Origin: an uncultured Acidimicrobiia bacterium
Lineage (GTDB): Bacteria > Actinomycetota > Acidimicrobiia > Acidimicrobiales > SZUA-35
Direction of reading: 5' to 3'
Length of the DNA: 64,000 nt
Assembly (NCBI GenBank): GCA_965530755.1
Contig: CBESNA010000001.1
Location: forward strand, 4,739-68,738
This document shows positions 31,680 to 57,004 of the stretch, piece after piece. A program made the position numbers and the translations under genes. Each line of letters opens with the position of its first letter. The first letter of the stretch is position 1. The notes beneath the pieces are model-generated. The model worked only from the letters and a program-made list of their open reading frames with translations. It was not told where the DNA came from and made no database searches.

Positions 31680-31680
31680 C

Positions 31681-31986: not shown

Positions 31987-31994
31987 GGCTACTC

Positions 31995-36944: not shown

Positions 36945-38383
36945 GACAAGGCCCCTTGCGTCGGGAGGGACGTTTCGCCCCCAGGGCGAAACTCGTCGTT
37001 CGGCGACGCAGTCGCCGAAACCTTGGCCTCGAACTCGGCCCGGAATCGGCGGATGGCCGACGTGATCGGCGCCACCGATGACGGACCCAGCGGGCAGATG
37101 GTGGTCTGCTTCGGGGGGAACGGGACGGCCTCGAGACCAGCGTCGCCGAAGCTGGCGACGGGATAGTCGCCGGGACTGATGTTGCGACCGATGTCGAGCA
37201 GGAGGTCGATGTCCTCCGGCCGGCCGAGGCCGTCGTCGATGCGTTGGAGCACCTTCTCCTCCCAGCTGGTTCCCTCACGACAGGGCGTGCACTTGCCGCA
37301 GGATTCGCGGGCGTAGAAGCGAACGAGTCGGAGGGCTGCCTTCACCGCATCGGTGGTCTCATCCATCACCATGATCGCCCCAGACCCGAGCATCGATCCG
37401 GCCGGTCCGACCTCGGATGCCTCGATCTTGAGGTCGAGTTGATCCTCGAAGAACCATGGAGCCGATCCGCCACCGGGGACAAACGCCTTCAACGCGTGAT
37501 CGTCGGCGATGCCCTGACAGTAATTGTCATCGTGGAAGAGATCGCGGAATGTCGGGACACCTTGCTCGACCTCGTAGACGCCGGGTCGCTTGACGTGCCC
37601 GCTGATGGCCAACATGCGGGTACCGGGCGACTTCTCCGACCCGATCTTCTTGTACTCCTCGGCGCCGTGAACCATCAGCCAGGGCAGGTTGGCGAGGGTC
37701 TCGACGTTGTTCACGATCGTGGGCTTCATGTAGAGGCCCTTGGCCGCCGGGAAGAACGGCGGCTTGAGACGAGGCATGCCGCGGTTGCCCTCGAGCGACT
37801 CGATCAGCGCAGTCTCTTCACCGACGATGTAGGCACCGGCGCCCCAGTGCAGGACGACGTCGATCGAGACGTCGGTGCCGAGGATGTTCTTGCCGACGAA
37901 CCCGGCGGCGTAGGCGTCGTTGAGCGCCTGTGCGATGTTCTCCTGAGCCTGAGCCATCTCGCCCCGGACGTACAGGAAACACTGGTTCAGTCCGAGGGCA
38001 TAACAGGTGATGATGCACCCCTCGATGAGCTGGTGCGGATCGCGTTCCATCAGGAGGCGATCCTTGTAAGTGCCCGGCTCGGACTCGTCGCCGTTGACGA
38101 CGAGATACCTCGGCCAGATCGGGGGCATGAAGCCCCACTTGATGCCTGCTGGGAAGCCGGCGCCGCCGCGGCCGAGCAGGACGGCGTCCTTCACCTCGGC
38201 TGCGACCTCGGCGGGGGTGCGCCGAAGCGCGTTCTTCAGCCCGTCGTAGCCACCGGTGGCGAGCGCTCGCTCGAGCGTGTGACTGTCCTCGTAGCGGAAT
38301 CGACTGGTCACCACCTTCGGGCCTGCGTTGTCGACGTAGCCCGGCGCATGAGCGACGTAGTCGTTGGTGGGAGCGGCGCTCAC
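36941..38383 (-). CDS. nuoF: NADH-quinone oxidoreductase subunit F (cluster 2)
   Basis: FMN/NADH site GAGAYIVGEETALIESLEG and N3 cluster motif ESCGKCTPCREG. Confidence 0.93.
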   Translation of the reverse strand: MSAAPTNDYVAHAPGYVDNAGPKVVTSRFRYEDSHTLERALATGGYDGLKNALRRTPAEVAAEVKDAVLLGRGGAGFPAGIKWGFMPPIWPRYLVVNGDESEPGTYKDRLLMERDPHQLIEGCIITCYALGLNQCFLYVRGEMAQAQENIAQALNDAYAAGFVGKNILGTDVSIDVVLHWGAGAYIVGEETALIESLEGNRGMPRLKPPFFPAAKGLYMKPTIVNNVETLANLPWLMVHGAEEYKKIGSEKSPGTRMLAISGHVKRPGVYEVEQGVPTFRDLFHDDNYCQGIADDHALKAFVPGGGSAPWFFEDQLDLKIEASEVGPAGSMLGSGAIMVMDETTDAVKAALRLVRFYARESCGKCTPCREGTSWEEKVLQRIDDGLGRPEDIDLLLDIGRNISPGDYPVASFGDAGLEAVPFPPKQTTICPLGPSSVAPITSAIRRFRAEFEAKVSATASPNDEFRPGGETSLPTQGALS

Positions 38384-39003
38384 GAGACTTCCTCCGGGGC
38401 GGGTTGTCGGCTGGCGAACCAGGCCGGCGTGCCGGTGTCTTCAGGGGCGCCGATCCCGCCGAGACGGTCAGGGGTGATCGTCTGGCGAACCCGGGCAAGG
38501 GTGCCGTGTTCAGGGATGTCCGTACGCTTGCCGGCGCGAAGATCGTCGACGAGGACGTCGAAGTCGTTGTTACCGAGTCGGTACTCGTAGCGGTAGTTCA
38601 CCTGAAGGCAGGGCCCCTCGGTGCAGGCCGCTATGCACTCGACATCTTCGAGGGTGAACAAACCGTCTTCGGTGGTGCCGCCGGGGCGAACACCGAGCTT
38701 CTGCTCGGCGTGATGCAGCAGTTCCTCTGCGCCGACGAGCTGGCATGACAGGTTCGTGCAGATGTCGATCTTGTACGTTCCGACCGGGTGGGTGACGAAC
38801 ATCTCGTAGAAGCTGCAGGTTCCCATGACCTCGGCCGGCGTGACGCCGACCAAATCGGCCAGGTGCTCCATGGCGTCTGCCGCGACGTAGCCGTCCTGTT
38901 CCTGCGCCAGGTGGAGCAGCGGAATAAGTGCGGACTTCTTGCGCGGATATCGAGCGATGATGTCGTGCGCAATCGCTTCGTTCTCAGGGGACAGTCGACT
39001 CAC
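38380..39003 (-). CDS. nuoE: NADH-quinone oxidoreductase subunit E (cluster 2)
   Basis: Thioredoxin-like 2Fe-2S subunit (CTNLSCQL, ECIAACTEGPCLQVN). Confidence 0.9.
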   Translation of the reverse strand: MSRLSPENEAIAHDIIARYPRKKSALIPLLHLAQEQDGYVAADAMEHLADLVGVTPAEVMGTCSFYEMFVTHPVGTYKIDICTNLSCQLVGAEELLHHAEQKLGVRPGGTTEDGLFTLEDVECIAACTEGPCLQVNYRYEYRLGNNDFDVLVDDLRAGKRTDIPEHGTLARVRQTITPDRLGGIGAPEDTGTPAWFASRQPAPEEVS

Positions 39004-39006
39004 GGG

Positions 39007-40362
39007 TTACCTGTCTACTTCGCCGAGGATGGGATCGACACTGCTGATCACGGCCACCGCATCGGCGAGGAGCGAGTCGGCCATCATGTGCGACATGGTC
39101 TGGAGGTTCACGAAACTCGGGCCCCGGATGTGCATGCGATATGGCTTCGAGGAGCCATCGGACACGATGTAGCAACCGAGCTCGCCGCGGGGTGACTCGA
39201 CGGCAACGTAGGTCTCGCCTTCCGGCACCTTGAAACCCTCGGTGAAGATCTTGAAGTGATGGATGAGGGCCTCCATCGATTCGTCGATCCTGGCCCGGGG
39301 TGGCGGGGTTACCTTGGTGTCCTGCACGCGATAGTCGCCGCGCGGCATCTTGTCGACGATCTGGTGAACGATCTTGATCGACTCCCGAATCTCGTTGAGC
39401 CGGATGGCGTAGCGGTCGAAGCAGTCGCCATAGGAGCCGACGACCACGTCGAAATCGACTTGGTCGTAGGCGAGGTAGGGCTCGTCGCGACGCAGATCCC
39501 ACGGAACGCCGGCACTACGCAGCACCGGACCGGTGGCAGAGAGGGCGATGGCCTCCTCGGCGGTCATCGTGCCGACCCCTTGCAACCGATCTCGCCAGAT
39601 CGGTTGACCGGTCATCAGGATGTCGTACTCCTCGAGACGAGGCGGCAGCATGTCCATCAGCGCCAGCACTTCGTCACGCCAGCCGTCCGGCAGGTCGGCA
39701 GCGACACCACCGGGCCGGATGTAGTTGTGGTTCATGCGCAGGCCGGTGACCATCTCGAAGAACCGCAGCACCTGTTCGCGCTCGCGCCAGCCGTAGATCA
39801 TCATCGATACGGCACCGAGGTCCATGCCGTTGGTCGCCATGAAGAGCAGATGCGACGAGATGCGGTTCATCTCGCTCATGAGCATGCGGATCCAAGTGGC
39901 CCGCTCCGGGATCTCGACGCCGAGAAGGTCCTCGACGGCCAAGGAGAACACCAGCTCGTTGAAGAACGGAGAGGCGTAGTCCATTCGGGTGACGTTGGTC
40001 GGGCCCTGGAGGTAGGTCAGGCTCTCGGCCTGCTTCTCCATGCCGGTGTGGAGGTAACCCATGATGGGTTTGGACCGCCGAACCGTTTCGCCATCGAGTT
40101 CCAGCATCAGACGGAGGACACCATGTGTCGACGGGTGTGAGGGCCCCATGTTGACGAGCATGGTCTGCTCGCCCTCGCCGGCGATCGGCCGATCGCTGAG
40201 CTCGGCAGCCTCGACTTCTGACATTCGGAGGACAGCGTTGGACCGGGGAAGCTTGTCGAGCTGGGTGAGCAGGCCGTTCTCGTCAACGGTCAGAACATGG
40301 CCGTTCACGGTGATCGTCGAAGGGGTGAGCTCGGTGTCGGGGGTGGGGTCAGTGACGGTCAT
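39007..40362 (-). CDS. nuoD: NADH-quinone oxidoreductase subunit D (cluster 2)
   Basis: NMGPSHPSTHGVLRLML motif. 451 aa with an N-terminal extension. Confidence 0.92.
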   Translation of the reverse strand: MTVTDPTPDTELTPSTITVNGHVLTVDENGLLTQLDKLPRSNAVLRMSEVEAAELSDRPIAGEGEQTMLVNMGPSHPSTHGVLRLMLELDGETVRRSKPIMGYLHTGMEKQAESLTYLQGPTNVTRMDYASPFFNELVFSLAVEDLLGVEIPERATWIRMLMSEMNRISSHLLFMATNGMDLGAVSMMIYGWREREQVLRFFEMVTGLRMNHNYIRPGGVAADLPDGWRDEVLALMDMLPPRLEEYDILMTGQPIWRDRLQGVGTMTAEEAIALSATGPVLRSAGVPWDLRRDEPYLAYDQVDFDVVVGSYGDCFDRYAIRLNEIRESIKIVHQIVDKMPRGDYRVQDTKVTPPPRARIDESMEALIHHFKIFTEGFKVPEGETYVAVESPRGELGCYIVSDGSSKPYRMHIRGPSFVNLQTMSHMMADSLLADAVAVISSVDPILGEVDR

Positions 40363-40372
40363 GGATGAGTCC

Positions 40373-40900
40373 TCAGCGTGAAGCCGGTGCGCCCTTGAAC
40401 TGCACGGGGATGGCGCCGGTGGCGTAGTCCTTGCGGAGGGGATGACCCTCCCAGTGCTCCGGCATCATGATGCGCGACAGGTCAGGATGACCCTCGAACA
40501 CGATGCCCATGAGGTCGTACACCTCACGTTCGAGCGCATCGGACCCCGGATAGATCGAGTAGAGCGAGCCGATGATGGGATCCGATGCGGGCACCTGGAT
40601 TCGCGCCCGGATCCGTTCGCGGCGCTCGTGAGAGATGAAACCGGCGACGACCTCGAAACGCTCTGCCTGGACGCCGACCGGCACGCGTCGGTGGCCTCCG
40701 AAGCTGAGGAAATCAACGGCGGTGACGTCGACACACATGTTGAATCCGTCCGCCAGCAGCGACGAAGCAACCTCGAGCCACTGTTCGCGAGCAGGATGGA
40801 TCACTCGTTGCGCTCTCGACCAGCTGACCGGACACCCGTAGGCGGATTCAGGTTCGATGGCGACTGGTGGTTCCACCGATTCGTCTGGGGCGTCGCTCAT
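40373..40900 (-). CDS. nuoC: NADH-quinone oxidoreductase subunit C (cluster 2)
   Basis: [29 protein letters not shown], the NuoC core. Confidence 0.9.
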
Positions 40901-41487
40901 GCCGATCGACCGACAGTGAGCAAGGTGGTTTCGCCCTGGCCGTCACGCTGCTCGATGATGATCCCGGCTCCGCTGCCGGACACACCGCGTCTGCGCATGA
41001 TCTCGCCGGTCTCGATCTGGTGGTGGAGGGTCTCGATGGCGTGGAGAAGGGTCTCCGGGCCGGGCGGGCAGCCAGGTGCGTACACGTCGACGGGCACGAC
41101 CTGATCGACACCCTGGACGATCGCGTAATTGTTGAACATGCCGCCGCTCGACGCGCAGACACCCATGGATATGACCCACTTGGGCTCCATCATCTGGTCG
41201 TAGATCTGGCGGAGGACCGGTGCCATCTTCTGGCTGACCCGACCAGCGACGATCATGATGTCCGCCTGGCGCGGCGATGCCCGGAAGACTTCCATGCCGA
41301 GCCGAGCCATGTCGTAGTGAGATCCACCAGTGGCCATCATCTCGATGGCGCAACACGCCAAACCGAAAGTGGCGGGCCACGACGAACGCGAGCGGGACCA
41401 TCGAACCAGATTTTCGAGTTGACCCGTGACGATGTTGTGGTCGAGCCCACCCAGGCCGTCGTCCTGGATGTCGGTGATCAGACCCAT
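40897..41487 (-). CDS. nuoB: NADH-quinone oxidoreductase subunit B (cluster 2)
   Basis: [19 protein letters not shown] and APGCPP motifs. ATG 41487 overlaps the nuoA stop (TGATG). The upstream part of ORF 40897..41892 was rejected. Confidence 0.92.
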
Positions 41488-42017
41488 CAGGAACCTCCGC
41501 TGGGTTCGAGCGTGCGAATCGGGTCGGGATGACCGGCAGACTCGCGTCCGGGTCCGGCAGTGAACGTCTGGTCGAAGCGACCGTCGAGACCGACACGGCG
41601 GATGGTCGACGATGAGGTGCGGTGCGCACCCACCGCTTCCGGCTGGCGACGATTGACCTGGAGCGAGCCCCAGTCGAGGGCTCCCTTGGAGATCAGGTAG
41701 AGGAACGACTCGAACACCAGCGCCGAGAACAAGAGGATGGCGACGAGCCCGAAGAGACCGAGTTCGCGGTGCGCCATGGCGTACGGGTAGAGGAAGATGA
41801 TCTCGATGTCGAACACGATGAAGAGCATCGCGACGAGGTAGAAGCGCACCGGGAACCGCTGCGGAGGTTCGCGGCCGGGGATGATGCCGCACTCGTACGG
41901 CGCGTACTTGGCCTCGGTTGCTCGGTTCGGAGCCAACAGCTTCGACGCGACGAGGCTGACGGCCGCGAAGAGGGCGGCGAGGACCAGTAGCGCCGCAATC
42001 GGTAGGTACTGGGCCAT
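41487..42017 (-). CDS. nuoA: NADH-quinone oxidoreductase subunit A (cluster 2), with a ~55-aa C-terminal extension
   Basis: KYAPYECGI and [11 protein letters not shown] motifs. Confidence 0.9.
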
Positions 42018-42062: not shown

Positions 42063-43043
42063 TCATGCGACCGCAGCGCGAATGTTCTGTTCTCGACGGT
42101 CCCGGATGTGCATCATCCATGAGACCACGGCGAACAGAATGCCATTGAAGATGGCAAAGAGTGCGGGAACGACGCGTTGTCCTCCGACGAGCGCAGGGAT
42201 CGGCCCCCCGCGGTCACGCTCGAGCACCACGCTGATTGTGCTCTTGGTTGGATCGGCGGTGGCGACGGGGGGCGGTTCGCCTGGCAACGTCGGCTCGTCG
42301 ACCACACCCTGGAACTGGACGACCACGAGCTCCTGGGGATGCCAGAAGTGGATGAACGTGGTGTCGAACTTGTGCAGCAGACGGGCCGGGAGGTCGGTGA
42401 ACGACTCCACCCAGGCCGACTTTCCGGGATCGTCGGCGACGATGTCCGGATCGAGGCGCGGTTTACCGCCGATGTTGTAGGCGTCGAAGGTGAGGGGCAC
42501 GAACTCGGCCGTACTGGCGAAGACGCCCTCCTCGATCAAGAACTCCTCCGCCGTTGCCGTGGCCTCGCCGCGTTGCGGGTCGGAGGTGGCGAGGTAACGC
42601 CAATCGGCGAGCAGCTGCGGGTTGGCCCGAGAGATCTCGACGGCGTCAGCCTGACGAAGGTCGGGGTCATCGGACGAGACTGCTTCACCAAGATCGAAAG
42701 CCTCGATGGCCAGTCCGAGCTCTTGAACGCGCTCGTCCTCGGCGAACACGAGTCCATCGGCATCGCGAGCGGGATTGTCACCGTTGATCTCGACCAGCGC
42801 CCACGATTCACCTTCGCCCCGCCAACCAATGGCATAGATAGTCCAGACGACACCCATCAGGAACAGCCAGCCGAACAACTGACCGGCCGTGATGAGGGCA
42901 CCGAGGCGAGAGCCGCTGTTGCTGGCGACCAGGAGATACGAGCCCCCGATGAGGACCACCACGCCGACCAACACACTGAGCAGACCACGGAAGAACGGAT
43001 CGAATCCGACGCCGCCGATGAATCCAAGAGAAACTGCAAGCAT
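42063..43043 (-). CDS. Orphan membrane protein (3 N-terminal TM, ~200-aa acidic extracytoplasmic-looking domain, C-terminal TM), last gene of the Rieske/cyt b module
   Basis: ATG 43043 overlaps the cytochrome c stop (TGATG). I recognise no family. Hydrophobic segments include LLSVLVGVVVLIGGSYLLV, LFGWLFLMGVVWTIYAIGW and VVPALFAIFNGILFAVVSWMM. Confidence 0.6.
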   Translation of the reverse strand: MLAVSLGFIGGVGFDPFFRGLLSVLVGVVVLIGGSYLLVASNSGSRLGALITAGQLFGWLFLMGVVWTIYAIGWRGEGESWALVEINGDNPARDADGLVFAEDERVQELGLAIEAFDLGEAVSSDDPDLRQADAVEISRANPQLLADWRYLATSDPQRGEATATAEEFLIEEGVFASTAEFVPLTFDAYNIGGKPRLDPDIVADDPGKSAWVESFTDLPARLLHKFDTTFIHFWHPQELVVVQFQGVVDEPTLPGEPPPVATADPTKSTISVVLERDRGGPIPALVGGQRVVPALFAIFNGILFAVVSWMMHIRDRREQNIRAAVA

Positions 43044-44578
43044 CAGAGACCTCGCTCGTAGTCGACGACTGCCTGGATGTATTCCGGAGGCAGCAAGGCA
43101 CCAAAGCCCGGCATCATGCCGGCTGAACTCTGACCGCCTCGGCCGAAGCCGCGGCCGGCCTCGGCGCCGCTGTAGATGAAGTTGTACTGGGCGTAGCTGG
43201 TGCGCTCGGGCATGTCGACCACCGTGCAATCGTCACCGAGACGGCCGTCGCTCAAAGCGATCACCGTGCCGGTCAGGTCGGACTCGGTGAGTTCGACCGG
43301 TGCGATGAACTCGCCGTTGTCGTCGAGCTCGAACACGTGGTCGAAGGCGAACGGATACGACTCGCCGCCGTCGGGCTCCCACAGATTCGAGACCGTGGCG
43401 CAGTCGGCGAGGTCGCCGTTGTCGAGGATTCGGTAGAACTCGTCGGTGCCATCTGGATTCTGCTGACCGGTGATGGGGCTACCGCGATCGTCGAGACGAA
43501 TCTCGGTGCCGTCCATGGCGAGGTAGTAGAAACCGTCGTCGTCGGCCAGTCCACCCTCCGGAGCCCAGGTGCCATCCGGCAGCTTCCAGGCGTCATCGGG
43601 GAAGTGCTGGTCGACGCCACCACACAGGTTCCAGCCGATGCCGGAGGGGTTGCCACCACCGCAGGCAGCAACGCCGTCGGAGAGCGGGTCGCCTCCGGGG
43701 TGCGGCACGTTCGGTCCGAGGGACCAACCAGCGGTGTGACAGCGTGCGCAGCTCAGCGAGCCGGCCTGGAAACTCGAGTAGTAACCGAGGTTGAACACGG
43801 CTTCACCGACGGAGTCGAATTCGCCGTCTGCCATGGACCGCTCGACCTCTTTGACGATCGCGGCCGCCTGCTTGTCGGCGGCTTCCTGCGCGGCTTCGGG
43901 ATCAGCAGACTCGTTGATGGTGATCGGATCGAGCGACTGGACCTGGAACAGATCGATGTATTCCTGGACGTTCTGGACCTGCTGAGTGGTGAGCGGACCA
44001 CCGCCAGGGGTGCCCCATGCTGCCATCGGCGAACCGGGGCGGCCGTAGTTCAGGATGTAGGTGACCTCTTCCTCGGAGTAGCGGAGGAAGACGTTGTTGA
44101 GCGCCGGCGCGGTCCACGCCGCATTGGCGAGGAACTGGCCGTCTTGATCCTGCAGCACGTAGGCGGCGACGCCGCCGACGCCGCCGGCGGCGTGGCAGTT
44201 CACGCACTGCGCGGTTTCGATGTAGACACCCTCGCCGCGTGATTCGAAGTTGAGCTGATACGCGTCGACCGCGCCGTCTTGTCGACCTGGCTCAGCGAGC
44301 CAGTAGAACGGCAGGGCGAGGGCCAGCAGACCGAGCGTGACCAATGCGAAACCGAGAGACCAATCGAGCTTCTTGCCCTCGAGTTCTTCATCGTCGAGGT
44401 AGGGCTTCTTGTTCGCCGCCAACTCGATCTCCGAACCGAGCTCGGGGCGAGCCTGGAACGAGTTTCGAATGAACAGGAGAACGAAGCCGGCCAGAACGAC
44501 CACAGCGACGGTCAAACCGATGGCGCGGAAATCTGCGGCGAAAACCGCAGTTGTAGCAAACACAGGGGCAGAACTCAT
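43043..44578 (-). CDS. Membrane-anchored di-haem c-type cytochrome (QcrC-like), with a large insertion in the second haem domain
   Basis: Two CxxCH motifs (CVNCH, CARCH). Candidate Met ligands are GSPMAAWG and AGMMPGFG. Two N-terminal TM segments. One-nt overlap with the Rieske stop. Confidence 0.85.
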   Translation of the reverse strand: MSSAPVFATTAVFAADFRAIGLTVAVVVLAGFVLLFIRNSFQARPELGSEIELAANKKPYLDDEELEGKKLDWSLGFALVTLGLLALALPFYWLAEPGRQDGAVDAYQLNFESRGEGVYIETAQCVNCHAAGGVGGVAAYVLQDQDGQFLANAAWTAPALNNVFLRYSEEEVTYILNYGRPGSPMAAWGTPGGGPLTTQQVQNVQEYIDLFQVQSLDPITINESADPEAAQEAADKQAAAIVKEVERSMADGEFDSVGEAVFNLGYYSSFQAGSLSCARCHTAGWSLGPNVPHPGGDPLSDGVAACGGGNPSGIGWNLCGGVDQHFPDDAWKLPDGTWAPEGGLADDDGFYYLAMDGTEIRLDDRGSPITGQQNPDGTDEFYRILDNGDLADCATVSNLWEPDGGESYPFAFDHVFELDDNGEFIAPVELTESDLTGTVIALSDGRLGDDCTVVDMPERTSYAQYNFIYSGAEAGRGFGRGGQSSAGMMPGFGALLPPEYIQAVVDYERGL

Positions 44579-45447
44579 CAGTGACTCGCTGCTCCGATGC
44601 AGTTGGGACCCTCGGCCTCTTGGCCGGTGGTGTTGGTGCCGATCGCCGGACCCTGAATCACGGTGCCGGTGTCGACCTCGAGCTCATTGGCCGCATTGAC
44701 TACCATCGGGAAGCGGTCCATGCCGCGTGGGGCGGGGCCGCCCTTCTTCTCGCCGACCCGGTTGTACTGGGAGCCGTGGCAGGGACATTCGAACCACTGA
44801 GAAGTCTGACAGTCGGGCACACGGCAACCGAGGTGCGGGCAGGTCTGGTAGAGGGCCACGACCCCGGCGCGAAGACCAGCCTCGACCTGGGGGAAGAAGC
44901 CGTAGCCAGTGACCGCCTTCTCGATCGCATCGTGGGGGTACTCGGTCACCCACATACGACCCTCGGGGACGTAGAGGAAGCCACCGCCGGCCTTGATGGA
45001 GGCCTGGATGTCGCTGATGCGTCCGACGTTGATGATCGAACCGAATCCGCTCGAGCCCTGCGGCCACAAAAAGGCAATACACGCTGCGCCGAAGCTGGTG
45101 AGTCCGAGACCGAACGTGGCGACGATGCCCCGGTTCAAGAACTGGCGACGGGCGACACCGATGGTCTCAGGGTCCGGGGGAACGTAGGCGACGGGGGCGA
45201 CGCTGCCGGCCGCGACGAGCGCTCCGGAACGTTCGACACGGGCCGCGGCTTCGACTGCCTTGCCGCTGACGACCAGCTCGGGCTCCTCGGCGCCGACAGG
45301 AGAGATCGTTGCCGCGCGGTCGCGCTTGACGGTCTCTCCCGACAACTGCCCAATGGCAGACGCCGAATCACGATTTCGGAACGTTGCTGCGATCGCGAAC
45401 AGAGCGATGGCGGCCAGTACAGCGACAGCGATGATCAAACCAGTCAT
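44578..45447 (-). CDS. qcrA: Rieske [2Fe-2S] subunit of a menaquinol:cytochrome c reductase
   Basis: CPHLGC and CPCHGS boxes. An internal twin-arginine segment (ARRQFLNRG) precedes a TM helix. Confidence 0.9.
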   Translation of the reverse strand: MTGLIIAVAVLAAIALFAIAATFRNRDSASAIGQLSGETVKRDRAATISPVGAEEPELVVSGKAVEAAARVERSGALVAAGSVAPVAYVPPDPETIGVARRQFLNRGIVATFGLGLTSFGAACIAFLWPQGSSGFGSIINVGRISDIQASIKAGGGFLYVPEGRMWVTEYPHDAIEKAVTGYGFFPQVEAGLRAGVVALYQTCPHLGCRVPDCQTSQWFECPCHGSQYNRVGEKKGGPAPRGMDRFPMVVNAANELEVDTGTVIQGPAIGTNTTGQEAEGPNCIGAASH

Positions 45448-45460
45448 GTGCGATTCCTCT

Positions 45461-46234
45461 CTAGAGCTCGAAGAACAGGCCGTCGGCCCATGGGAAGACG
45501 AAGTTGAAGCCAGGGCCTCGGAAGAACGAGCCGATCATGGTGAGCACGGCCCAGAACATCAAGAACATGGTGAACAAGCTGACCGCAAACTTGCGATCCT
45601 CGGGTTTGTTCGATGGATTGCGGTCGATGTATGGCGCCATCGTCAAGATGATGAGGCCGATGCCGGGAATCGTCACGCCGGCGACCATCGGGTGGAACAT
45701 GGTGAGCAGTTCCTGGAGGCCGAGGAAATACCACGGCGCCTTCGAGGGATTCGGGGTGGCGTTCACGTTCGCCAATTCGAGCAGCGGAGCGTTCACGAAG
45801 ATCGAGAAGAACGTGAGGAAGACGGTGACGGCGAGGGCGGCACCGAACTCGACCACGATCAGGTGCGGCCAAGTGTGAACCTTGTCGAGCGGCTTGGACT
45901 TGATGTCCTGGATCGACCCGGACTTGACCACCGTGAGCAGGCGCTGGGTGTGTCCGGCGGGTCCGGTCATGGCTGGAACATCGGCGACCGCAGTTGCCGC
46001 CGCGACAGCGGTCCCGACGCCACCACCGGCGGGAGCGACTGCTGCCTCGGAGCCCTTCTGCTTGGCCGACTTCGAGCGCTGCAGGAGGTGGGCGGGGATC
46101 TTGCTGGCCGCCGGGTCGGTCGAGGCCGACTCGGCTGCCTCCGAGGCAGCCGGAGCAGCAGCTTCCGCCGCGCCTTCGGCCTTCTTGCGAGCCTCCTCGG
46201 CCCGCTTGCGGAGATGTTCGGGGATTTCGGTCAT
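45461..46234 (-). CDS. Cytochrome b C-terminal-domain protein (b6f subunit IV-like), with a ~115-aa Ala/Lys-rich N-terminal extension
   Basis: PEWY-type Qo motif region (APWYFLGLQELL) and 3 TM segments. The extension carries two IPxHLxxR motifs. Confidence 0.85.
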   Translation of the reverse strand: MTEIPEHLRKRAEEARKKAEGAAEAAAPAASEAAESASTDPAASKIPAHLLQRSKSAKQKGSEAAVAPAGGGVGTAVAAATAVADVPAMTGPAGHTQRLLTVVKSGSIQDIKSKPLDKVHTWPHLIVVEFGAALAVTVFLTFFSIFVNAPLLELANVNATPNPSKAPWYFLGLQELLTMFHPMVAGVTIPGIGLIILTMAPYIDRNPSNKPEDRKFAVSLFTMFLMFWAVLTMIGSFFRGPGFNFVFPWADGLFFEL

Positions 46235-46315
46235 TGCAGATCCTGTCCGGGGAGTCCTGTGAAGGAGGAGGGTCGGAAGACGAGGGGAAACGAGAAGACG
46301 TAGATCGTGATCGGC

Positions 46316-47107
46316 CTAGAGCGGCCCGGAGATGCCGCCGTCTTTCCTGACCCTCCAGAAGTGGATGGCCATGAAGATGACGGTGACGAAGGGTAGGAGC
46401 AGTACGTGCAGCACGTACCAACGCAACAACGTGTCGGTGCCGATGACCTTGCCACCCAGCAGCACGAACCGGACCTGGTCACCGAACACAGGGGTGTACC
46501 CCATCATGTTGGTACCGACGGTGACCGCCCACAAGGCGAGCTGATCCCACGGAAGCAGATAGCCGGTGAAGGACAGCAGCAGCGTCATCTGGAGGAGGAT
46601 CGTGCCGATGACCCAGTTGAACTCACGCGGCGCCTTGTAAGCCCCGTGGTAGAACACGCGGGCCATGTGAAGGAACACCGAGAGCACCATCAGATGGGCG
46701 CCCCATCGGTGCATGTTCCGAACGAGTAGACCGAAGGTGACCGAGGTCTGCAGCGTGTAGATGTCCTGCCACGCTGCGGCTGCGGTCGGCCGGTAGAAGA
46801 ACATCAAGAAGATGCCGGTGACGGTGAGGATGATGAAGAGGAAGAAGCTGAGCCCGCCGAGACACAGGGTGTAGCTCACCTTGACCGCGTGGCGCTTCAC
46901 CTTCACAGGGTGCAGGTGGTACAGCACCGAGTTCATGATCACGTATGACCGGTTCCTAGGGCTGTCGGTGTAGCCCTTGCGGAAGACCGAGCCGGGCCGG
47001 AAGATCGAGTTCCAGACCTGTGAGCTCTGGACCGAGTCGCTGGCGGTCGCCGCCGATGCCGCGGCACGCTCGGCGAGCGTGGGCTTGTCCTGAATCGACT
47101 TTGCCAT
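46316..47107 (-). CDS. qcrB: Cytochrome b6-type (N-terminal domain only) cytochrome b
   Basis: Paired haem-ligand histidines (RNMHRWGAHLM, WYVLHVLLLPFVTVIFMAIHFW). Ends in GGISGPL like Bacillus QcrB / cytochrome b6. Confidence 0.9.
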   Translation of the reverse strand: MAKSIQDKPTLAERAAASAATASDSVQSSQVWNSIFRPGSVFRKGYTDSPRNRSYVIMNSVLYHLHPVKVKRHAVKVSYTLCLGGLSFFLFIILTVTGIFLMFFYRPTAAAAWQDIYTLQTSVTFGLLVRNMHRWGAHLMVLSVFLHMARVFYHGAYKAPREFNWVIGTILLQMTLLLSFTGYLLPWDQLALWAVTVGTNMMGYTPVFGDQVRFVLLGGKVIGTDTLLRWYVLHVLLLPFVTVIFMAIHFWRVRKDGGISGPL

Positions 47108-47169
47108 GAGTTGAGAGTTCCTCGAGTTGCGGGGGTCGAGATCGACCGGAAATCGGTGTGACGGGGAGC

Positions 47170-47589
47170 CTAGGCGAGGCGCATGCCGTAGCCGTAGCCG
47201 TGGGAATCGGTTCGCTGGTGATGATCACCGGTTGGGTTGGCGGTGTCGGCCACCTTGCCCAGGATGATCACGCCAGTGGGACAGCGGTCGACGCAGAGTG
47301 CACAGCGAGTACACACGTCGTCGTCGATGGTGAAAATGAATGCATCGGAGGGATCGTCGCCCGGTTTGGCGATACCGAAACTCTCAGAGATGGCGTCTGT
47401 CGGCTGCATGTGGATGCACTTCCACGGGCAGATGTCGACGCAGCCTTCACAGGCAATACATTCGGCCTGATCGATGTGGATGAACTGCTTCGGCTTGACC
47501 GCCTTGGAGAGGTAGTCCGCGTCGACCTCGACCAGGATGTAGTCGTCGCGGAACTCTGGAAGGGGTGGATTGGCGTCGGTGGTGACCAT
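47170..47589 (-). CDS. 2x[4Fe-4S] dicluster ferredoxin-domain protein
   Basis: CIACEGCVDICP and CTRCALCVDRCP motifs. 139 aa. 62 bp upstream of cytochrome b6. Confidence 0.85.
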   Translation of the reverse strand: MVTTDANPPLPEFRDDYILVEVDADYLSKAVKPKQFIHIDQAECIACEGCVDICPWKCIHMQPTDAISESFGIAKPGDDPSDAFIFTIDDDVCTRCALCVDRCPTGVIILGKVADTANPTGDHHQRTDSHGYGYGMRLA

Positions 47590-47599
47590 CTGTCGTCGA

Positions 47600-48037
47600 T
47601 CAGCCCCTCTTGATCAGGGGGCGGCCGTACGTGGATGTCGGCAGCTCGGCCGCCTTGGTCTTGCCTCGTTCCTGCCACTGCAACCACATCACGATCATTC
47701 CGGTGAGGAACGCGATGTAGATCAGTGCAGCGATCGAGTCGGACAGCACTCGATAGGTGATCTCGAAGGGGAACCAGCCGCCCTGGCTCTTGGCGGTGAT
47801 CAGGCCCCAGGCATCCCAGATGCGATCGGCTCGGAAGCTCCACTCGTTCTCGGCGAGGGTCAACCACTGGTGGGGCACGATGCCGAAGACGAGGAAGAAG
47901 ACGAAAAAGACGTACACCGACATCATGCTCGCCTCGCCCCAGCTCATGTGGTTCTCGGGGTCTCGCCGAGACGACCACAACGCAAAGGCGCCGACCAGGA
48001 GGAAGGAGATGGCGGTTGAAACAATGAGAGCGGTCAC
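47600..48037 (-). CDS. Orphan small membrane protein, first gene of the Rieske/cyt b module
   Basis: GTG 48037 is preceded by GAGG at 6 nt. 145 aa with about 4 hydrophobic segments. The ORF-track start at 48136 would place the Rex operator inside the coding sequence and was rejected. Confidence 0.6.
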   Translation of the reverse strand: MTALIVSTAISFLLVGAFALWSSRRDPENHMSWGEASMMSVYVFFVFFLVFGIVPHQWLTLAENEWSFRADRIWDAWGLITAKSQGGWFPFEITYRVLSDSIAALIYIAFLTGMIVMWLQWQERGKTKAAELPTSTYGRPLIKRG

Positions 48038-48068: not shown

Positions 48069-48086
48069 TTGTGAACAGTTGCACAA
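48069..48086. promoter_or_regulatory. Rex operator (ROP)-like palindrome
   Basis: TTGTGAACAGTTGCACAA matches the ROP consensus TTGTGAA-N4-TTCACAA at 13 of 14 specified positions. It lies 32 bp upstream of GTG 48037 in the divergent intergenic region. Confidence 0.7.
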
Positions 48087-48385: not shown

Positions 48386-49276
48386 GTGACTGAAATCCCC
48401 GAACATCTCCTGAAGCGCAGCCGGGCGGCCAAGGGCACGCCGGACCCCTCGGGAGACAGCGCCGGAAGCGCGGTCGAATCCGCACCGCCGGCCTCAGCAG
48501 CACCGGCCACCGCGGGACCACCCGCCATCGCCGCAGCGGCAAGTGCGATCCCGAAGGATCCGGAGCCGAAGCCCGAACCCGACCTGCCCCACTACATCGT
48601 CGCCGCCAACAAGCGGAGGAAGCTCCCGCTGTGGAGTTTCCTCGTTGTCGGCGCACTGCCGCTCTGGGCAATCAGTTTCGCGGGCACCATGCAGCAGCCC
48701 GCGGTCGAAGATCCACTGTTCGAAGAGGCGGCGCTCGTCTACGCCGAGACCGGCGGTTGCTCGGGTTGCCACGGCGCCGGCGGTGGCGGCGGTGTCGGTT
48801 ACAAATTCAGCGAAGGCGAGATCATCAAGACCTTCCCCGAGCCGATCGACCAGATCGCACACATCGCTCGCGGCTCGAGCCTCATCAATGGCGAGCAGTA
48901 CGGCGATCCGGAACGCGACGGTGGAGCCCGCATCTCCGGCGCTCGTAACCAGGGCGCCATGCCGGCCATGCTCGGCGTCCTGTCGATGGCGGAGCTCGAG
49001 TTGGTGGTCTTCCACGAACGAGCCGTCATCGGTGGCGAAGACACCGAGTCCGCGCTCTACCAGGAGTGGATCGATCACCTCCGCGAAGCCGCTGAGAGCG
49101 GTGAAGGTTCACCGACCAGTGACGACGATCTCAATCTGATCCTCCAGTGTTCCGATCCGGCGTACACCCCGGGTGGGTCCGGACCTGGTCCGGTCGACCT
49201 CGACGGTGACGGAGCAAACGACTGCCCCGGCCCCGATGGGTCGGTGACCGGAAGCGGCGAAGTCGCTGCCGGTTGA
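48386..49276 (+). CDS. Membrane-anchored mono-haem class I c-type cytochrome
   Basis: GTG 48386 with GAGGA 4 nt upstream. One TM (LPLWSFLVVGALPLWAISFAG), CSGCH haem motif, and GAMPAM as a Met-ligand candidate. The N-terminus TEIPEHLLKRSRAAKG is shared with the subunit IV-like protein. Confidence 0.8.
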   Translation: MTEIPEHLLKRSRAAKGTPDPSGDSAGSAVESAPPASAAPATAGPPAIAAAASAIPKDPEPKPEPDLPHYIVAANKRRKLPLWSFLVVGALPLWAISFAGTMQQPAVEDPLFEEAALVYAETGGCSGCHGAGGGGGVGYKFSEGEIIKTFPEPIDQIAHIARGSSLINGEQYGDPERDGGARISGARNQGAMPAMLGVLSMAELELVVFHERAVIGGEDTESALYQEWIDHLREAAESGEGSPTSDDDLNLILQCSDPAYTPGGSGPGPVDLDGDGANDCPGPDGSVTGSGEVAAG

Positions 49277-49391
49277 TCCGCCTCCGGCGATCGCCACTGT
49301 CGACACTGGTCCGAATGACCAATTGACCTGCCGCCACATCGACCCGAGACTCAACAAGACTGTTGGTCTGATCTCGTCGACGAAAGTACCC

Positions 49392-51734
49392 ATGCCCGAT
49401 CCTCGTGCCCGCTGGGTTCGCATCCGCTCTTCTCTCGTCGCACTGATCGTGTTCAGCTCGGCGATGGCTGCAGCAGGCACGGCTGGCGCCACCGACGCCA
49501 CGATCGATGAGGCCACCGAGCGAACATCTGCAGCCGTCCCAGGCGACGTGTTGCCCGGCGACGTCGTGATCGAGACCACCGACCCTACGGTCGACACGAC
49601 CTCTCGGACCTACGTCGGTGCGCTTCAGGATCTTCGTGAAGAGCAGCAGATCCGCCAGGCGCTCACCCGGCGGTTCATCGACACCGGCACCGCTGCCGCC
49701 GTCACCGGCGACATCGCGGTCACCTACGTCCGTTCGACGCCGTCAGATGTGAGAGCGGTGGTCGATGCCGCTGTCAGCGACTGGAACGCAACCCTAAGAA
49801 CGACCTCGAGCGGTCCAGTCATCGTCAGTTTCGACTGGGTGGACCTGTCCGACACCCTTCCCGGCACCCTCGGATTCGCAGGTCCGACTGGGTTCATTCG
49901 ACGAGCCGACAACCTGTACTACCCCGTAGCTCTGGCCAACACCCTCGACCGCCGCGACTACGCCCCGAGCCGGGTGGAGATCGAAGTCACGATCTCGAGT
50001 GCGTTCTACGATCAGCCGGGTGGCTGGTACGTCGACGCCTCGGACGAGAGTATTCCGTTCAACCGACTCGACCTCTATGCCACGATGCTCCATGAACTCG
50101 GCCACGGTTTCGGGTTCCTCGGATCGGCCGAGCGACGCGACGGCGTCAACCTCCTCCAGGTCCCGCCGGACAAGTTCGACACTCTCGTTCGTTATCGGGG
50201 CTCGCGATTGGTCGATCTCGCCAACAACGGCGCCTACCTCACGAGCGGGGAACTGTTCATCGACATCGGCGGCGGCCAGCTCCACGAGATCTACGCACCT
50301 CGAACCTTCTACAACGGCAGCAGCTACTCGCACTTCGACGAGGCCGAGTACCGCAGCGGCGACCCAGGTTCGCTGATGACACCTGCGCTCGGCGCAGGCG
50401 AGACCGAACGCGTGATCGATGCACCGACACTCGGGGTGCTGGTACAGAGCGGCTGGCAGACCGACGTCCCGATGCTTGCCCCGTCCATCACCGAGGTCGG
50501 CGAGCGCTCAGGCGCCTTCGATGTGTCGTGGTCGGCCGACCTCGGGGAGAACGCCGTCCCTCCCCAGTCCTGGGCGATCCGTGTGGTCCGCACCAGCAAC
50601 GGGCAGCAGGCGGCTCGGGTCGTCACCAGTGGCTCGGCCAGGACTGCACGAGTGTCCGGTCTCACGAACAATCTCAACTACCGGGTAGAGGTGAGCCCGA
50701 TCGGCTTCGCTGCCAGCCCGGGAACCGCCACGCAAACCCTGTCGCTCACTCCTCCCCCGGTGGCGCCGACCTTGGTGAACGTCGCTGGATCCGGATTCGA
50801 TCGGACGGTGCAGTGGCAGCTGGCCGACGACGGGGGCAGCCCCGTGATCCGTTATGACGTGCAGATGTCGAAGAACGGCGGCTCCTTCGTCCCCCTCGGA
50901 AGCACCGGCTCGGCCCAGATCGCCACGGGACGACTCACCAACGACGTCTTCCAGTTCCGGGTCCAGGCGGTCAACGCCAATGGCGGCAGCATCTTCGGCT
51001 ACTCACTTCCGACCGGCTTCACCAACACCGTCGTGCGCCCGCTTCCCCTCGACGGCGAGATCGCCCGTCTCTACCAGGCCTATTTTGATCGAGTCCCCGA
51101 CCGGACGGGAATGGCGTTCTATCTCGACCAGCGATCGACCGGTCGTTCGCTCTCATCGGTCTCCCAGGAGTTCCTCGATTCGTCCGAGTTCGTCTCCGCC
51201 TACGGCTCACTCGGCAATCGGGCGTTCATCGAACAGCTGTATCGCAACGTCCTCGGCCGGCGAGGCGATTCCGGAGGAATCGACTACTGGACGTCCCAGC
51301 TCGACTCCGGCCGTGCGAGGTCCTCCGTCGTGATCGACTTCGCCCAGTCATCCGAATTCGTTCTACAGACCGACACCGCCCCGGTGCAGAGTCCCAACCA
51401 GGGCGCGGTCTACCGTCTCTATCTGGCCTACTTCCTCCGGCCGGCCGATGCCGGCGGAGCTGCATTCTGGACCCAGGAGGCCAACAGCGGACGATCGCTC
51501 ACCAGCATCTCGAACGCCTTTGCCCTCTCACCGGAGTTCAGCGATCGTTACGGCGACCTCTCGAACGCGGCCTTCATCGAGCTCGTCTACGCCAACGTGC
51601 TCGGCCGCCTACCCGACAGCGCCGGCCGCACGTACTGGCTCGGCCGGATGGCCGGCGGCGTGTCGCAGGGCGACGTGATGCTGGCCTTCTCGGAGTCGCC
51701 CGAGTTCGTGCTGCGCACCGGCTCGGTCCGCTGA
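49392..51734 (+). CDS. Secreted multidomain protein: HExxH metallopeptidase-like domain, two FN3-like domains, four DUF4214-like repeats
   Basis: Signal peptide (LVALIVFSSAMAAAGTAGA) and zinc motif MLHELGHGFGF. Two FN3-like blocks end in YRVEVSPIG and FQFRVQAVNANG. Four repeats of the pattern LYxxxLGRxxDxxGxxYW...S.EF. Confidence 0.7.
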   Translation: MPDPRARWVRIRSSLVALIVFSSAMAAAGTAGATDATIDEATERTSAAVPGDVLPGDVVIETTDPTVDTTSRTYVGALQDLREEQQIRQALTRRFIDTGTAAAVTGDIAVTYVRSTPSDVRAVVDAAVSDWNATLRTTSSGPVIVSFDWVDLSDTLPGTLGFAGPTGFIRRADNLYYPVALANTLDRRDYAPSRVEIEVTISSAFYDQPGGWYVDASDESIPFNRLDLYATMLHELGHGFGFLGSAERRDGVNLLQVPPDKFDTLVRYRGSRLVDLANNGAYLTSGELFIDIGGGQLHEIYAPRTFYNGSSYSHFDEAEYRSGDPGSLMTPALGAGETERVIDAPTLGVLVQSGWQTDVPMLAPSITEVGERSGAFDVSWSADLGENAVPPQSWAIRVVRTSNGQQAARVVTSGSARTARVSGLTNNLNYRVEVSPIGFAASPGTATQTLSLTPPPVAPTLVNVAGSGFDRTVQWQLADDGGSPVIRYDVQMSKNGGSFVPLGSTGSAQIATGRLTNDVFQFRVQAVNANGGSIFGYSLPTGFTNTVVRPLPLDGEIARLYQAYFDRVPDRTGMAFYLDQRSTGRSLSSVSQEFLDSSEFVSAYGSLGNRAFIEQLYRNVLGRRGDSGGIDYWTSQLDSGRARSSVVIDFAQSSEFVLQTDTAPVQSPNQGAVYRLYLAYFLRPADAGGAAFWTQEANSGRSLTSISNAFALSPEFSDRYGDLSNAAFIELVYANVLGRLPDSAGRTYWLGRMAGGVSQGDVMLAFSESPEFVLRTGSVR

Positions 51735-53045: not shown

Positions 53046-53058
53046 CGCACCAGTGTGC

Positions 53059-54042
53059 TCAGGTGCGAAGCATCTCGGCCACCTCGGCCGCGAGATAGGT
53101 GAGGATGATGTCGGCGCCGGCTCGTTTGATCGCGGTCAAGACCTCGATCGCCGCCGCATCGCCGTCGATCCAGCCATTCGCTGCGGCGGCCTTGAGCATC
53201 GCGTACTCGCCACTCACGTGATACGCCGCCACCGGCACCTCGACGTCTGCCCTCACGGCAGCGATCAGATCGAGGTAGGTGTGAGCCGGTTTGACCATGA
53301 CCATGTCGGCCCCTTCTGCGATGTCGAGGCGAACCTCCTCGAGCGCCTCCCTGCCGTTGCGAGGATCCTGTTGGTAACCCTTGCGATCGCCACCGTCCGC
53401 GATCGTGACGTCGACGGCATCGCGGAATGGCCCGTACATGGCGCTCGCATACTTCGCGGCGTAGGCGAGGATCGAGACGTCGTCGAAGCCCGCTTCGTCG
53501 AGCGCTGACCGGATCGCCCCGACCTGACCGTCCATCATCCCAGACGGTGCAACGACATGGGCTCCCGCCGTCGCCTGCGCAACGGCGATCCTCCGATAGT
53601 TGATCAGGGTTGCATCGTTGTCGACCTCGCCGGCGGCGTCGACGATGCCGCAGTGGCCGTGACTCGTGTACTCGTCGACACAGAGGTCAGCCATCAACAC
53701 GATGCGGTCGCCCAGACGATCGCGCAGACGGCGCAACGCCACCTGGACGATGCCGTCCGCTGCCCAGGCTTGCGATCCTTCGTCGTCCTTGGTGGCCGGG
53801 ATGCCGAACAGCATGATGGCCGGGATGCCGAGGGCGACCAGGCGGTCGACCTCGGTGTCGAGCGATGCGAGGTTGTGCTGCTGGACGCCGGGAAGTGACG
53901 CTATGTCGACGGGGGCCTCGATGCCCTCACGCACGAAGAGCGGCGCAACAAGGTCGTCGACCGAGAGGGTGGTCTGGGCGACGAGTCGGCGCAGTGCACC
54001 GGTACGGCGAAGCCGACGGAGGCGGCGCTGGGGGAACGTCAT
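53059..54042 (-). CDS. hemB: Porphobilinogen synthase (delta-aminolevulinate dehydratase)
   Basis: RLRRLRRTGALRRLV N-terminus, and active-site region VMVKPAHTYLDLI and AAYHVSGEYAML. Confidence 0.92.
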   Translation of the reverse strand: MTFPQRRLRRLRRTGALRRLVAQTTLSVDDLVAPLFVREGIEAPVDIASLPGVQQHNLASLDTEVDRLVALGIPAIMLFGIPATKDDEGSQAWAADGIVQVALRRLRDRLGDRIVLMADLCVDEYTSHGHCGIVDAAGEVDNDATLINYRRIAVAQATAGAHVVAPSGMMDGQVGAIRSALDEAGFDDVSILAYAAKYASAMYGPFRDAVDVTIADGGDRKGYQQDPRNGREALEEVRLDIAEGADMVMVKPAHTYLDLIAAVRADVEVPVAAYHVSGEYAMLKAAAANGWIDGDAAAIEVLTAIKRAGADIILTYLAAEVAEMLRT

Positions 54043-56901: not shown

Positions 56902-57004
56902 GAGTCTCCTCGACGATGATTCGAGCGGGAACCTTTGGTCGCCGAACGCGACCATTGTCGCAGTTCTGACGGCGTCTGCACCACTCCGGCGCGGGTGGAA
57001 CCCG

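Follow-up and report, generated by a model that had tools for sequence, protein, structure and literature searches.

A b6-type Rieske/cytochrome b gene cluster of the Acidimicrobiales with a free-standing dicluster ferredoxin and two orphan membrane proteins

A 64-kb stretch of DNA from an uncultured Acidimicrobiia bacterium (contig CBESNA010000001.1; the whole analysed stretch is referred to here as the window) carries, on its minus strand at 42063-48037, seven co-oriented genes arranged head to tail and numbered here g1 to g7, which encode a Rieske/cytochrome b complex together with a small dicluster ferredoxin and two orphan membrane proteins. Judged by its sequence motifs, the complex is a member of the APWY clade, or subfamily G, of b6-type Rieske/cytochrome b complexes. 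By homology and position, the ferredoxin, g2, is a free-standing homologue of the dicluster that forms the C-terminal domain of a GltD-like NAD(P) flavoprotein, and the Acidimicrobiales keep only this membrane-proximal dicluster module, to which they add the two orphans. Taken as a whole, the cluster is best explained as encoding an Acidimicrobiales form of the b6-type complex with an n-side 2x[4Fe-4S] subunit (g2) and two accessory proteins (g1 and g7), an explanation that we regard as reasonably probable, and the complex is probably the menaquinol:cytochrome c oxidoreductase of the cell.

An earlier note on this DNA had listed seven genes with their lengths and motifs, and all seven open reading frames (ORFs) were recovered where it had placed them, in agreement with Pfam and NCBIfam. 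The first gene, g1 (47600-48037), starts at a GTG codon and encodes an orphan membrane protein of 145 residues with three transmembrane helices predicted from hydropathy. It is followed by g2 (47170-47589), a cytoplasmic 2x[4Fe-4S] ferredoxin of 139 residues that matches the Fer4 dicluster families of Pfam, and by g3 (46316-47107), a protein of 263 residues of the cytochrome b6 type, which corresponds to the four-helix N-terminal half of cytochrome b (PF00033, 154 bits). The C-terminal part of cytochrome b is encoded separately, as subunit IV, by g4 (45461-46234; 257 residues, PF00032 at residues 155-237). Next come g5 (44578-45447), which encodes a Rieske [2Fe-2S] protein of 289 residues (PF00355), g6 (43043-44578), which encodes a membrane-anchored di-haem cytochrome c of 511 residues with a Pfam cytochrome c domain at 114-208, and finally g7 (42063-43043), a second orphan of 326 residues in which transmembrane helices at both ends surround a large domain. 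Intergenic gaps of 10, 62, 81 and 13 nt, counted from g1 onwards, give way to two 1-nt overlaps, the last of them between the stop of g6 and the start of g7. Since homologues of every one of the seven proteins are found in up to 80 Acidimicrobiales species genomes, the ORFs are not chance occurrences; public collections also call exactly these seven products as genes, at identical lengths, under names that are generic or misleading where they are given at all. A sigma-70 promoter scan of the cluster returned no promoters and terminator-like matches at or below the level of shuffled sequence, and was uninformative.

Two independent observations tie the dicluster ferredoxin to cytochrome b6, namely its strict synteny within the Acidimicrobiales and its matching position, as a domain of a larger protein, in another phylum. 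For the first, relatives were taken as one genome per species and scanned with cytochrome b6; more than 587 were returned and the best 80 were used as loci. Nearly all of these 80 are labelled Acidimicrobiales, Acidimicrobiia or unclassified Actinomycetota, their cytochrome b6 is 83-96% identical to g3, and isolates are represented by Salinilacustrithrix flava and Aquihabitans sp. Acidimicrobiales turn up in many environmental metagenomes, and record titles among the relatives include groundwater, lake and sand samples. The earlier note would have counted its proposal as refuted if the ferredoxin and orphan genes did not stay beside the Rieske and cytochrome b genes in relatives, and the outcome is the contrary: all 67 of the loci with enough contig have the seven genes in unchanged order and orientation (tblastn), and every gene absence among the 80 falls at a contig end. 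This holds for the three loci that lack g1, which is present in the other 77, and g6 was found in 72 loci at 36-75% identity. The ferredoxin gene is present in all 80, at 68-97% identity. The conserved neighbourhood reaches beyond the cluster on both sides, as the complex I gene nuoA directly follows g7 in 69 loci and a divergent gene for a mono-haem cytochrome c is present in 69 of the 80.

Median identity to the window protein falls from 86% for cytochrome b6 through 76% for the ferredoxin, 69% for subunit IV, 59% for the Rieske protein and 45% for the cytochrome c to 40% for g1 and 33% for g7. The ferredoxin is thus second only to cytochrome b6, and is more constrained than three of the four subunits of the catalytic core. 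It carries two CxxCxxCxxxCP motifs, and no export signal or twin-arginine translocation (Tat) motif is visible in its sequence. Across 19 sequences that are 74-89% identical, no variation is seen in 80 of the 139 columns, among them those of all eight cluster cysteines, an N-terminal TDANPP and a C-terminal HGYGYGMRL tail, and such invariance of the cysteines and of both termini is more in keeping with a fixed subunit that has large interfaces than with a diffusible carrier.

For the second observation, the nearest cytochrome b6 proteins outside the Acidimicrobiales were gathered by an exhaustive search of 50%-identity representatives, which yielded proteins of 45-68% identity from which a profile was built. 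The named members retrieved were Candidatus Limnocylindria and Dehalococcoidia, both Chloroflexota, and nine genomic contexts (L081-L089) were sampled, the delta-proteobacterial and planctomycete branch being covered through the literature only. Chloroflexota cytochrome b6 is 58-62% identical to g3 where this was measured (L081 and L082). In eight of the nine contexts the gene immediately upstream of cytochrome b6, overlapping it by 4 nt in five loci, encodes a flavoprotein of ~650-665 residues, and the genes after cytochrome b6 encode subunit IV, a Rieske protein and a cytochrome c, in that order; the ninth context, L089, has no flavoprotein. These flavoproteins are GltD-like NAD(P)-binding oxidoreductases (NCBIfam) composed of Fer4_20, Pyr_redox_2 and a C-terminal 2x[4Fe-4S] dicluster. 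In L081-L088, as in the Acidimicrobiales, the cluster has the APWY motif, a Rieske box of the S..Y type, the core genes in the same order and a dicluster directly before cytochrome b6; the difference is that this dicluster is a domain of a ~650-residue protein, whereas g2 stands free.

The ferredoxin aligns with the last ~140 residues of the outgroup flavoproteins (tblastn, E = 1e-9 to 2e-14), and the alignment takes in both the stretch that precedes the first cluster and the insert separating it from the second. Compared with the flavoprotein dicluster by hhalign, g2 matched over 106 columns (99.5% probability, E = 2e-23), whereas the control, the NuoI protein encoded in the window, matched g2 over only 67 core columns (98.4% probability, E = 6e-15). 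When flavoproteins of 657 and 663 residues were used as tblastn queries against the window and the 80 loci, they matched only through their residues 505-639, which correspond to the g2 region, and no flavoprotein portion beyond that region was found. The earlier note's suggestion of an extra iron-sulfur (Fe-S) branch, placed on the cytoplasmic side, gains support from homology to the dicluster of flavoproteins preceding Chloroflexota cytochrome b6, whereas the physical membership of g2 in the complex is something that we infer. Assembly errors need to be kept apart from these results. That the flavoprotein of L081 is called at only 402 residues stems from a frameshift error of a long-read assembly, in which the Rieske gene is likewise broken by a frameshift, and four database representatives from error-prone assemblies (P0326, P0243, P0286 and P0246) are frameshifted or chimeric products that mimic ferredoxin-cytochrome b6 fusions. 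The first three of these had been considered as Rosetta-stone evidence and were discarded.

Public names of g2 homologues vary between NuoI/formate hydrogenlyase subunit 6 and PreA. The best NCBIfam match of g2 is indeed the NuoI model TIGR01971, at 46.9 bits, far below the cut-off of 113, and it would resemble NuoI, which holds clusters N6a and N6b, in being a dicluster ferredoxin bound to a complex and in having an insert that separates its two cluster motifs. That g2 is a displaced NuoI was nevertheless rejected, both on this score and because the nuo operon carries its own NuoI of 231 residues (32570-33265, minus strand, from ORF and family calls).

The conservation of g2 bears on whether it could be an evolutionary relic, kept for structure or assembly in a complex that runs an ordinary Q cycle, with clusters that carry no physiological electron flux. 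The flavin/NAD(P) domain, which is the catalytic end of the branch, is absent, the outgroup context L089 does without any flavoprotein, and the relatives, which we take to be largely aerobic heterotrophs, would need a plain complex III. However, all eight cysteines and most of the surface of g2 are invariant at 74-89% overall identity, and a protein better conserved than subunit IV, the Rieske protein and the cytochrome c is under constraint beyond that expected of a purely structural relic, so that this explanation appears unlikely.

The class to which the core belongs has been described under several names. The APWY clade was defined by Kao and Hunte (2014), who recorded that many of its proteins carry CxGG (PMC4122944), and it appears to be the same as the subfamily G of Dibrova et al. 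and the group A2 of Baymann et al., equated here by traits and members and not by a tree. The clade representatives retrieved at 45-62% identity carry APWY and/or (W/F/L)C(M/L/A)GG, and those that are named are Chloroflexota. A split cytochrome b with both APWY and CxGG has already been recorded in Ilumatobacter, a member of the Acidimicrobidae (Kao and Hunte, 2014; PMC4122944), so the split b6 form is not new to this lineage. In subfamily G, short cytochrome b co-occurs with FeS/NAD(P) oxidoreductases (PMC5600118), and since b6-type complexes with such n-side proteins, and with a bifurcation proposed for them, are known from anammox bacteria and subfamily G (PMC12954380; PMC5600118), the earlier note went too far in suggesting that the complex may be undescribed. 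The cluster is a genuine and conserved variant of a type that is known, though uncharacterised. What appears to be new is the reduced form with a free-standing ferredoxin, together with the two Acidimicrobiia-specific proteins. No description of a ferredoxin-only variant was found in the searchable literature, which omits most subscription journals.

The closest known systems are those of the anammox bacterium Kuenenia stuttgartiensis, of whose three Rieske/cytochrome b complexes two are b6-like, with a subunit IV and what is putatively an NAD(P) oxidoreductase at the cytoplasmic face (Kuste4569-4574 and Kustd1480-1485; Kartal et al., 2013; PMC12954380). Titration of the Rieske proteins of these two gave +303 and +335 mV, AlphaFold3 models show four Fe-S clusters leading to flavin adenine dinucleotide (FAD), and the function proposed is menaquinol bifurcation to NAD(P)+ (PMC12954380). 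The same models contain an unexpected haem b at the dimer interface, liganded by His43 or His62 of cytochrome b, which is a prediction only (PMC12954380). The Kuenenia complexes and the present cluster have in common a four-helix b6-like cytochrome b with a separate subunit IV, a haem cn site and an n-side Fe-S wire, and the conserved N-terminal histidine proposed to bind the extra inter-monomer haem b in Kuenenia may correspond to that of an HxHP sequence here. The Kuenenia Rieske proteins are of high potential by measurement, whereas that of the cluster is so only by its S..Y signature. The Kuenenia oxidoreductase is large, with FAD and four Fe-S clusters, in place of the two-cluster protein of 139 residues found here; hexa- or octa-haem cytochromes and a subunit like hydroxylamine oxidoreductase take the place of the di-haem cytochrome c; and there is no counterpart of g1 or g7. 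In view of the Chloroflexota clusters, an anammox-like architecture of flavoprotein and cytochrome b6 appears to be widespread outside the Planctomycetes.

The motifs of the four core subunits agree with this placement. Cytochrome b6 (g3) ends in RKDGGISGPL, has the two helix-B and two helix-D histidines that are expected to ligate haem and are invariant in the clade representatives, and carries the CxGG haem cn site in the form LCLGG, with C82 as its cysteine. Eighteen residues before this cysteine lies H64 of the clade-specific, N-terminal HxHP sequence; none of 12 diverse representatives of the clade deviates in its column, and all 80 of the Acidimicrobiales loci show the HxHP...CxGG pattern. 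The spacing from this histidine to the C-terminal RK pair is 190 residues in g3 and 204 in P0252, P0254 and P0260 (proteins without a lineage assignment), the latter equal to that between the proposed extra-haem ligands and nearby arginines, H43/R247 and H62/R266, in Kuenenia by the residue numbers of the paper (PMC12954380). Spacing of this kind argues for the equivalence of H64 and the Kuenenia extra-haem histidine but is not proof of it. A search of the PDB with g3 found no solved structure of an APWY-clade member, and the best solved relatives were the chloroplast and cyanobacterial b6 proteins, at 164 bits and aligned to the last residue.

Subunit IV (g4) bears the APWY motif of the Qo site at residue 166, which is conserved in 75 loci. 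PF00032 starts at residue 155, which bears out the N-terminal extension of ~115 residues pointed out in the earlier note; this extension is predicted to be cytoplasmic and contains two IPxHLLxR motifs that the Chloroflexota subunit IV lacks. A WPH...EF motif, present in the subunit IV of 76 loci, could supply the glutamate ligand described for Kuenenia (PMC12954380). The longer motif TEIPEHL(L/R)KR(S/A) stands at the N-terminus of g4 (46225, minus strand) and again ~40 residues on (46099, minus strand), and TEIPEHLLKR is likewise N-terminal (48395, plus strand) in the divergent membrane-anchored mono-haem cytochrome c (48386-49276, plus strand), which has a CSGCH motif and is a candidate electron acceptor. 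A six-frame translation of the window contains no further copies. Most of the 44 full-length relatives keep the motif, whereas Chloroflexota subunit IV lacks it, and its presence in the tails of both g4 and the divergent cytochrome c, each predicted to be cytoplasmic, suggests a shared docking partner.

The Rieske protein (g5) has the boxes CPHLGC and CPCHGSQY, and 71 of 73 loci have a second box of the high-potential S..Y type. The Tat-like RRQFL at residue 100, which precedes the second helix, comes only after an additional N-terminal transmembrane helix and ~70 residues of linker, whereas in the Chloroflexota Rieske proteins a plain Tat signal stands at the N-terminus. In this respect g5 resembles Rieske proteins of other actinobacteria, which are polytopic and internally Tat-targeted. 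In the cytochrome c (g6), CxxCH occurs just twice, as CVNCH at residue 125 and as CARCH at residue 277. This protein is the c-type subunit of the cluster, in which neither cytochrome f nor PetG, PetL, PetM or PetN was found, gaps of at most 81 nt leaving no room for small ORFs.

Similarities can be drawn with the cyanobacterial and chloroplast b6f complexes, which share the split into b6 and subunit IV, the CxGG cysteine, the ...GISGPL end and the CPCHGSQY box. The b6f complexes, however, have PEWY in place of APWY, cytochrome f in place of a di-haem cytochrome c and plastoquinone rather than menaquinone, and they have neither an encoded Fe-S subunit nor the extra N-terminal HxHP segment. The QcrCAB (bcc) complex of Mycobacterium and Corynebacterium shares with the cluster its phylum, a di-haem cytochrome c and a Rieske protein with one or more extra N-terminal transmembrane segments and an internal Tat-like motif; its QcrB, in contrast, is an unsplit long cytochrome b with PDWY and no haem cn. 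Scores far below the cut-offs were obtained with the QcrB model NF050120 (120.8 bits for g3, cut-off 500) and the QcrA model NF050121 (22 bits for g5, cut-off 275).

A further comparison concerns the name under which some of these proteins are found. The g3 protein passes the NCBIfam model for ExtP (303.5 bits, cut-off 290), while g4 remains below that for ExtQ (54 bits against 150). The ExtO/ExtP/ExtQ proteins of Geobacter belong to the same cytochrome b subfamily and likewise combine a small cytochrome b with a separate membrane partner and a Rieske protein; their cluster, however, has no ferredoxin and encodes in addition a porin, a rhodanese and cytochromes with 4 to 12 haems (PMC5877670). 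No porin, rhodanese or multihaem cytochrome of this kind was found near the window cluster, and an identity as ExtP of a selenite/tellurite operon was rejected on this context and on the ExtQ score. The 'selenite/tellurite operon' name borne by the Acidimicrobiia proteins in public annotation has been over-propagated, given that the composition of the Geobacter ext cluster is quite different. The ExtP equivalog model of NCBI, entitled 'selenite/tellurite reduction operon b-type cytochrome ExtP', also captures cytochrome b6 proteins of Acidimicrobiia and Chloroflexota that lie outside any ext-like operon. The assignment given here thus corrects two misleading public names, 'ExtP selenite/tellurite operon' and 'NuoI/formate hydrogenlyase subunit 6'.

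The orphans g1 and g7 match no known family in Pfam or NCBIfam, in line with what the earlier note had said of them. The longest ORF of g1 reaches 48136, and conservation begins at V34 of it, which is the GTG start. Conserved motifs of g1 are RRP, TWGEA, PHQWLTxAENEW and a C-terminal S(T/S)YGRPL(V/I)K, of which the basic YGRPLVK tail is predicted to be cytoplasmic. In g7, two N-terminal transmembrane helices and one C-terminal helix flank a domain of ~210 residues predicted to lie outside the membrane. Its family consists of only 234 detectable proteins, all unnamed, one of which (P0121, 326 residues) is 100% identical. The AlphaFold2 model of g7 is confident (predicted local distance difference test score, pLDDT, of 84) and shows the two N-terminal helices, an alpha/beta domain of ~210 residues and a long C-terminal helix, for which Foldseek found no known fold in the PDB (best E = 0.12, template modelling score <0.15). 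Given the positive C-terminus of the protein, the large domain is predicted to be outside the cell membrane, beside the Rieske protein and cytochrome c.

Counterparts of g1 and g7 were not found in the Chloroflexota outgroup loci. The Chloroflexota clusters end with small unnamed membrane proteins (e.g., L086, 6031-11781), and these were rejected as counterparts for want of any similarity. We infer that g1 and g7 are lineage-specific accessory subunits, in which case they define two new protein families tied to respiration. It is also conceivable that g1, g2 or g7 are not subunits and act instead as maturation factors, for example in the covalent insertion of haem cn, or are independent proteins that merely share the operon. 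The haem cn insertion system of non-phototrophs has been called 'a mystery' (PMC5600118), g1 contains a conserved Trp-rich loop with a histidine, and proteins that lack a known family, and in the case of g7 a known fold, could be candidates for such a role. Haem cn, however, has its attachment site on the n-side, while predictions put both the Trp-rich g1 loop and the large g7 domain on the outside; a Pfam scan gave no match to the CCB family; Chloroflexota relatives carry the CxGG cysteine and have neither g1 nor g7; and the homologue of g2 is fused to a flavoprotein, which hardly points to a chaperone. A role in maturation or a merely shared operon is consequently the least probable of the explanations weighed here.

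Returning to the reading of g1, g2 and g7 as parts of the complex, a working scheme may be proposed. The core would comprise cytochrome b6 with two b haems and a covalent haem cn on C82, subunit IV with the APWY Qo site, a Tat-exported Rieske protein of the high-potential type and the di-haem cytochrome c. Menaquinol would be oxidised at Qo. The first electron would pass by way of the Rieske cluster to the di-haem cytochrome c and from there to the membrane-anchored cytochrome c, probably that of the divergent gene, or to an oxidase, and the second would pass through bL to bH/cn and possibly also to an extra inter-monomer haem on the clade-invariant H64. From bH/cn, the second electron could either reduce menaquinone at Qi, as in the Q cycle, or run on by way of both [4Fe-4S] clusters in g2 to a cytoplasmic partner, which must be a separate protein because the flavin/NAD(P) domain is missing in the Acidimicrobiales. 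The predicted cytoplasmic tail of g1 could hold the ferredoxin, and g7 would sit on the outer face, near the Rieske protein and cytochrome c.

As to the direction of the Fe-S branch, we incline to an outlet at low potential, in other words to bifurcation of the kind proposed for anammox, with reverse flow as the main rival; the outlet is favoured because a Rieske protein of the high-potential type on a menaquinone pool would leave the low-potential chain negative enough, an argument made for Kuenenia (PMC12954380). In its full form this would mean that an order of widespread actinobacteria runs complex III as an electron-bifurcating machine, in which the oxidation of menaquinol, pulled by the high-potential Rieske protein, cytochrome c and oxygen, drives the second electron through bH/cn (and the extra haem) into bound g2 and so yields a low-potential reductant for a cytoplasmic partner, with g1 and g7 as new structural subunits. 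We put this forward tentatively, as a possibility that falls well short of being probable.

In the opposite direction, g2 would be an inlet, taking electrons from a cytoplasmic low-potential donor (soluble ferredoxin, or NAD(P)H via a separate flavoprotein) and delivering them through haem cn/bH to menaquinone at Qi. The complex would then be a 'membrane-anchored dehydrogenase', a hard-wired counterpart of the ferredoxin-to-b6f cyclic route, and its wire a hard-wired ferredoxin:quinone reductase of the kind long postulated for cyclic electron flow through b6f. The anatomy expected is identical to that of an outlet. Dibrova et al. read combinations of short cytochrome b and oxidoreductase as membrane-anchored dehydrogenases, haem cn has been proposed to receive electrons from ferredoxin, and an input of ferredoxin/ferredoxin-NADP reductase at the n-side of b6f has long been proposed (PMC5600118). 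Regulation could also be brought to bear on the inlet. A candidate Rex-type operator, TTGTGAACAGTTGCACAA, is located at 48069-48086, 32 nt upstream of the g1 start codon, and differs from TTGTGAA-N4-TTCACAA at one position. The window holds no other match, and 0.03 would be expected by chance; of 71 relatives, 41 have a comparable operator (two mismatches or fewer) at the matching position, while three such sites lie elsewhere in 1.27 Mb. Control of the cluster by NADH/NAD+ is probable, and an operator of this type implies induction at high NADH/NAD+, when an extra entry to the quinone pool could help. However, a full complex I for the oxidation of NADH is encoded immediately downstream, the S..Y Rieske protein combined with a menaquinone pool fits the energetics of an outlet, and an inlet was judged energetically wasteful by the Kuenenia authors (PMC12954380). 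The inlet is accordingly rather doubtful.

Several considerations weigh against the explanation preferred here. The binding of g1, g2 and g7 to the complex, like the cofactor occupancy and the path and direction of the electrons, is read from genes, motifs, synteny and homology, and the AlphaFold2 model of g2, built on the alignment of 19 sequences, is unusable (pLDDT 42). Dicluster ferredoxins all align with one another at high hhalign probability, the NuoI control still reaching 98.4%, and for this reason the specific homology of g2 to the flavoproteins rests on the extent of the alignment, on position and on synteny. No partner for the far end of the Fe-S wire emerged here, the flavin domain being absent, and a low-potential cluster exposed to oxygen would be hazardous in aerobes. 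The energetic argument, moreover, presupposes a menaquinone pool in the Acidimicrobiia, which we assume from their chemotaxonomy.

The proposal that b6-type complexes with an n-side Fe-S module send the Q cycle's low-potential electron to NAD(P)+ rests on slow-growing anammox enrichments and on AlphaFold models. Kuenenia is an anammox planctomycete, whereas the host of the present cluster is an actinobacterium whose cultured relatives are aerobes. The Acidimicrobiales in culture include Ilumatobacter, Iamia, Aquihabitans, Salinilacustrithrix and Microthrix, the first four of which are aerobic, and the Acidimicrobiales core with its minimal two-cluster subunit may be the only complex III present. 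It would therefore be a tractable system for studying electron exchange between haem cn/bH and a cytoplasmic Fe-S protein, the existence of the predicted extra haem, and the working of a high-potential Rieske protein with menaquinol.

The surroundings of the cluster are themselves largely respiratory. The complex I operon nuoA-N (25907-42017, minus strand) starts 45 nt downstream of g7, and just upstream of the cluster, on the same strand, lies a rex-hemA-hemC-hemD-hemB-hemL operon for haem biosynthesis (51753-57715), headed by a gene of Rex architecture (PF06971 and PF02629; 57005-57715) in an arrangement that is presumably the same as in Streptomyces. With the rex-hem operon, the divergent cytochrome c gene, the Rieske/b6 cluster and nuoA-N adjoining one another, these genes form a respiratory island of ~32 kb. 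Between the divergent cytochrome c gene and hemL, a protein of 803 residues with an fn3 domain and two C-terminal DUF4214 repeats is encoded at 49323-51734 on the plus strand.

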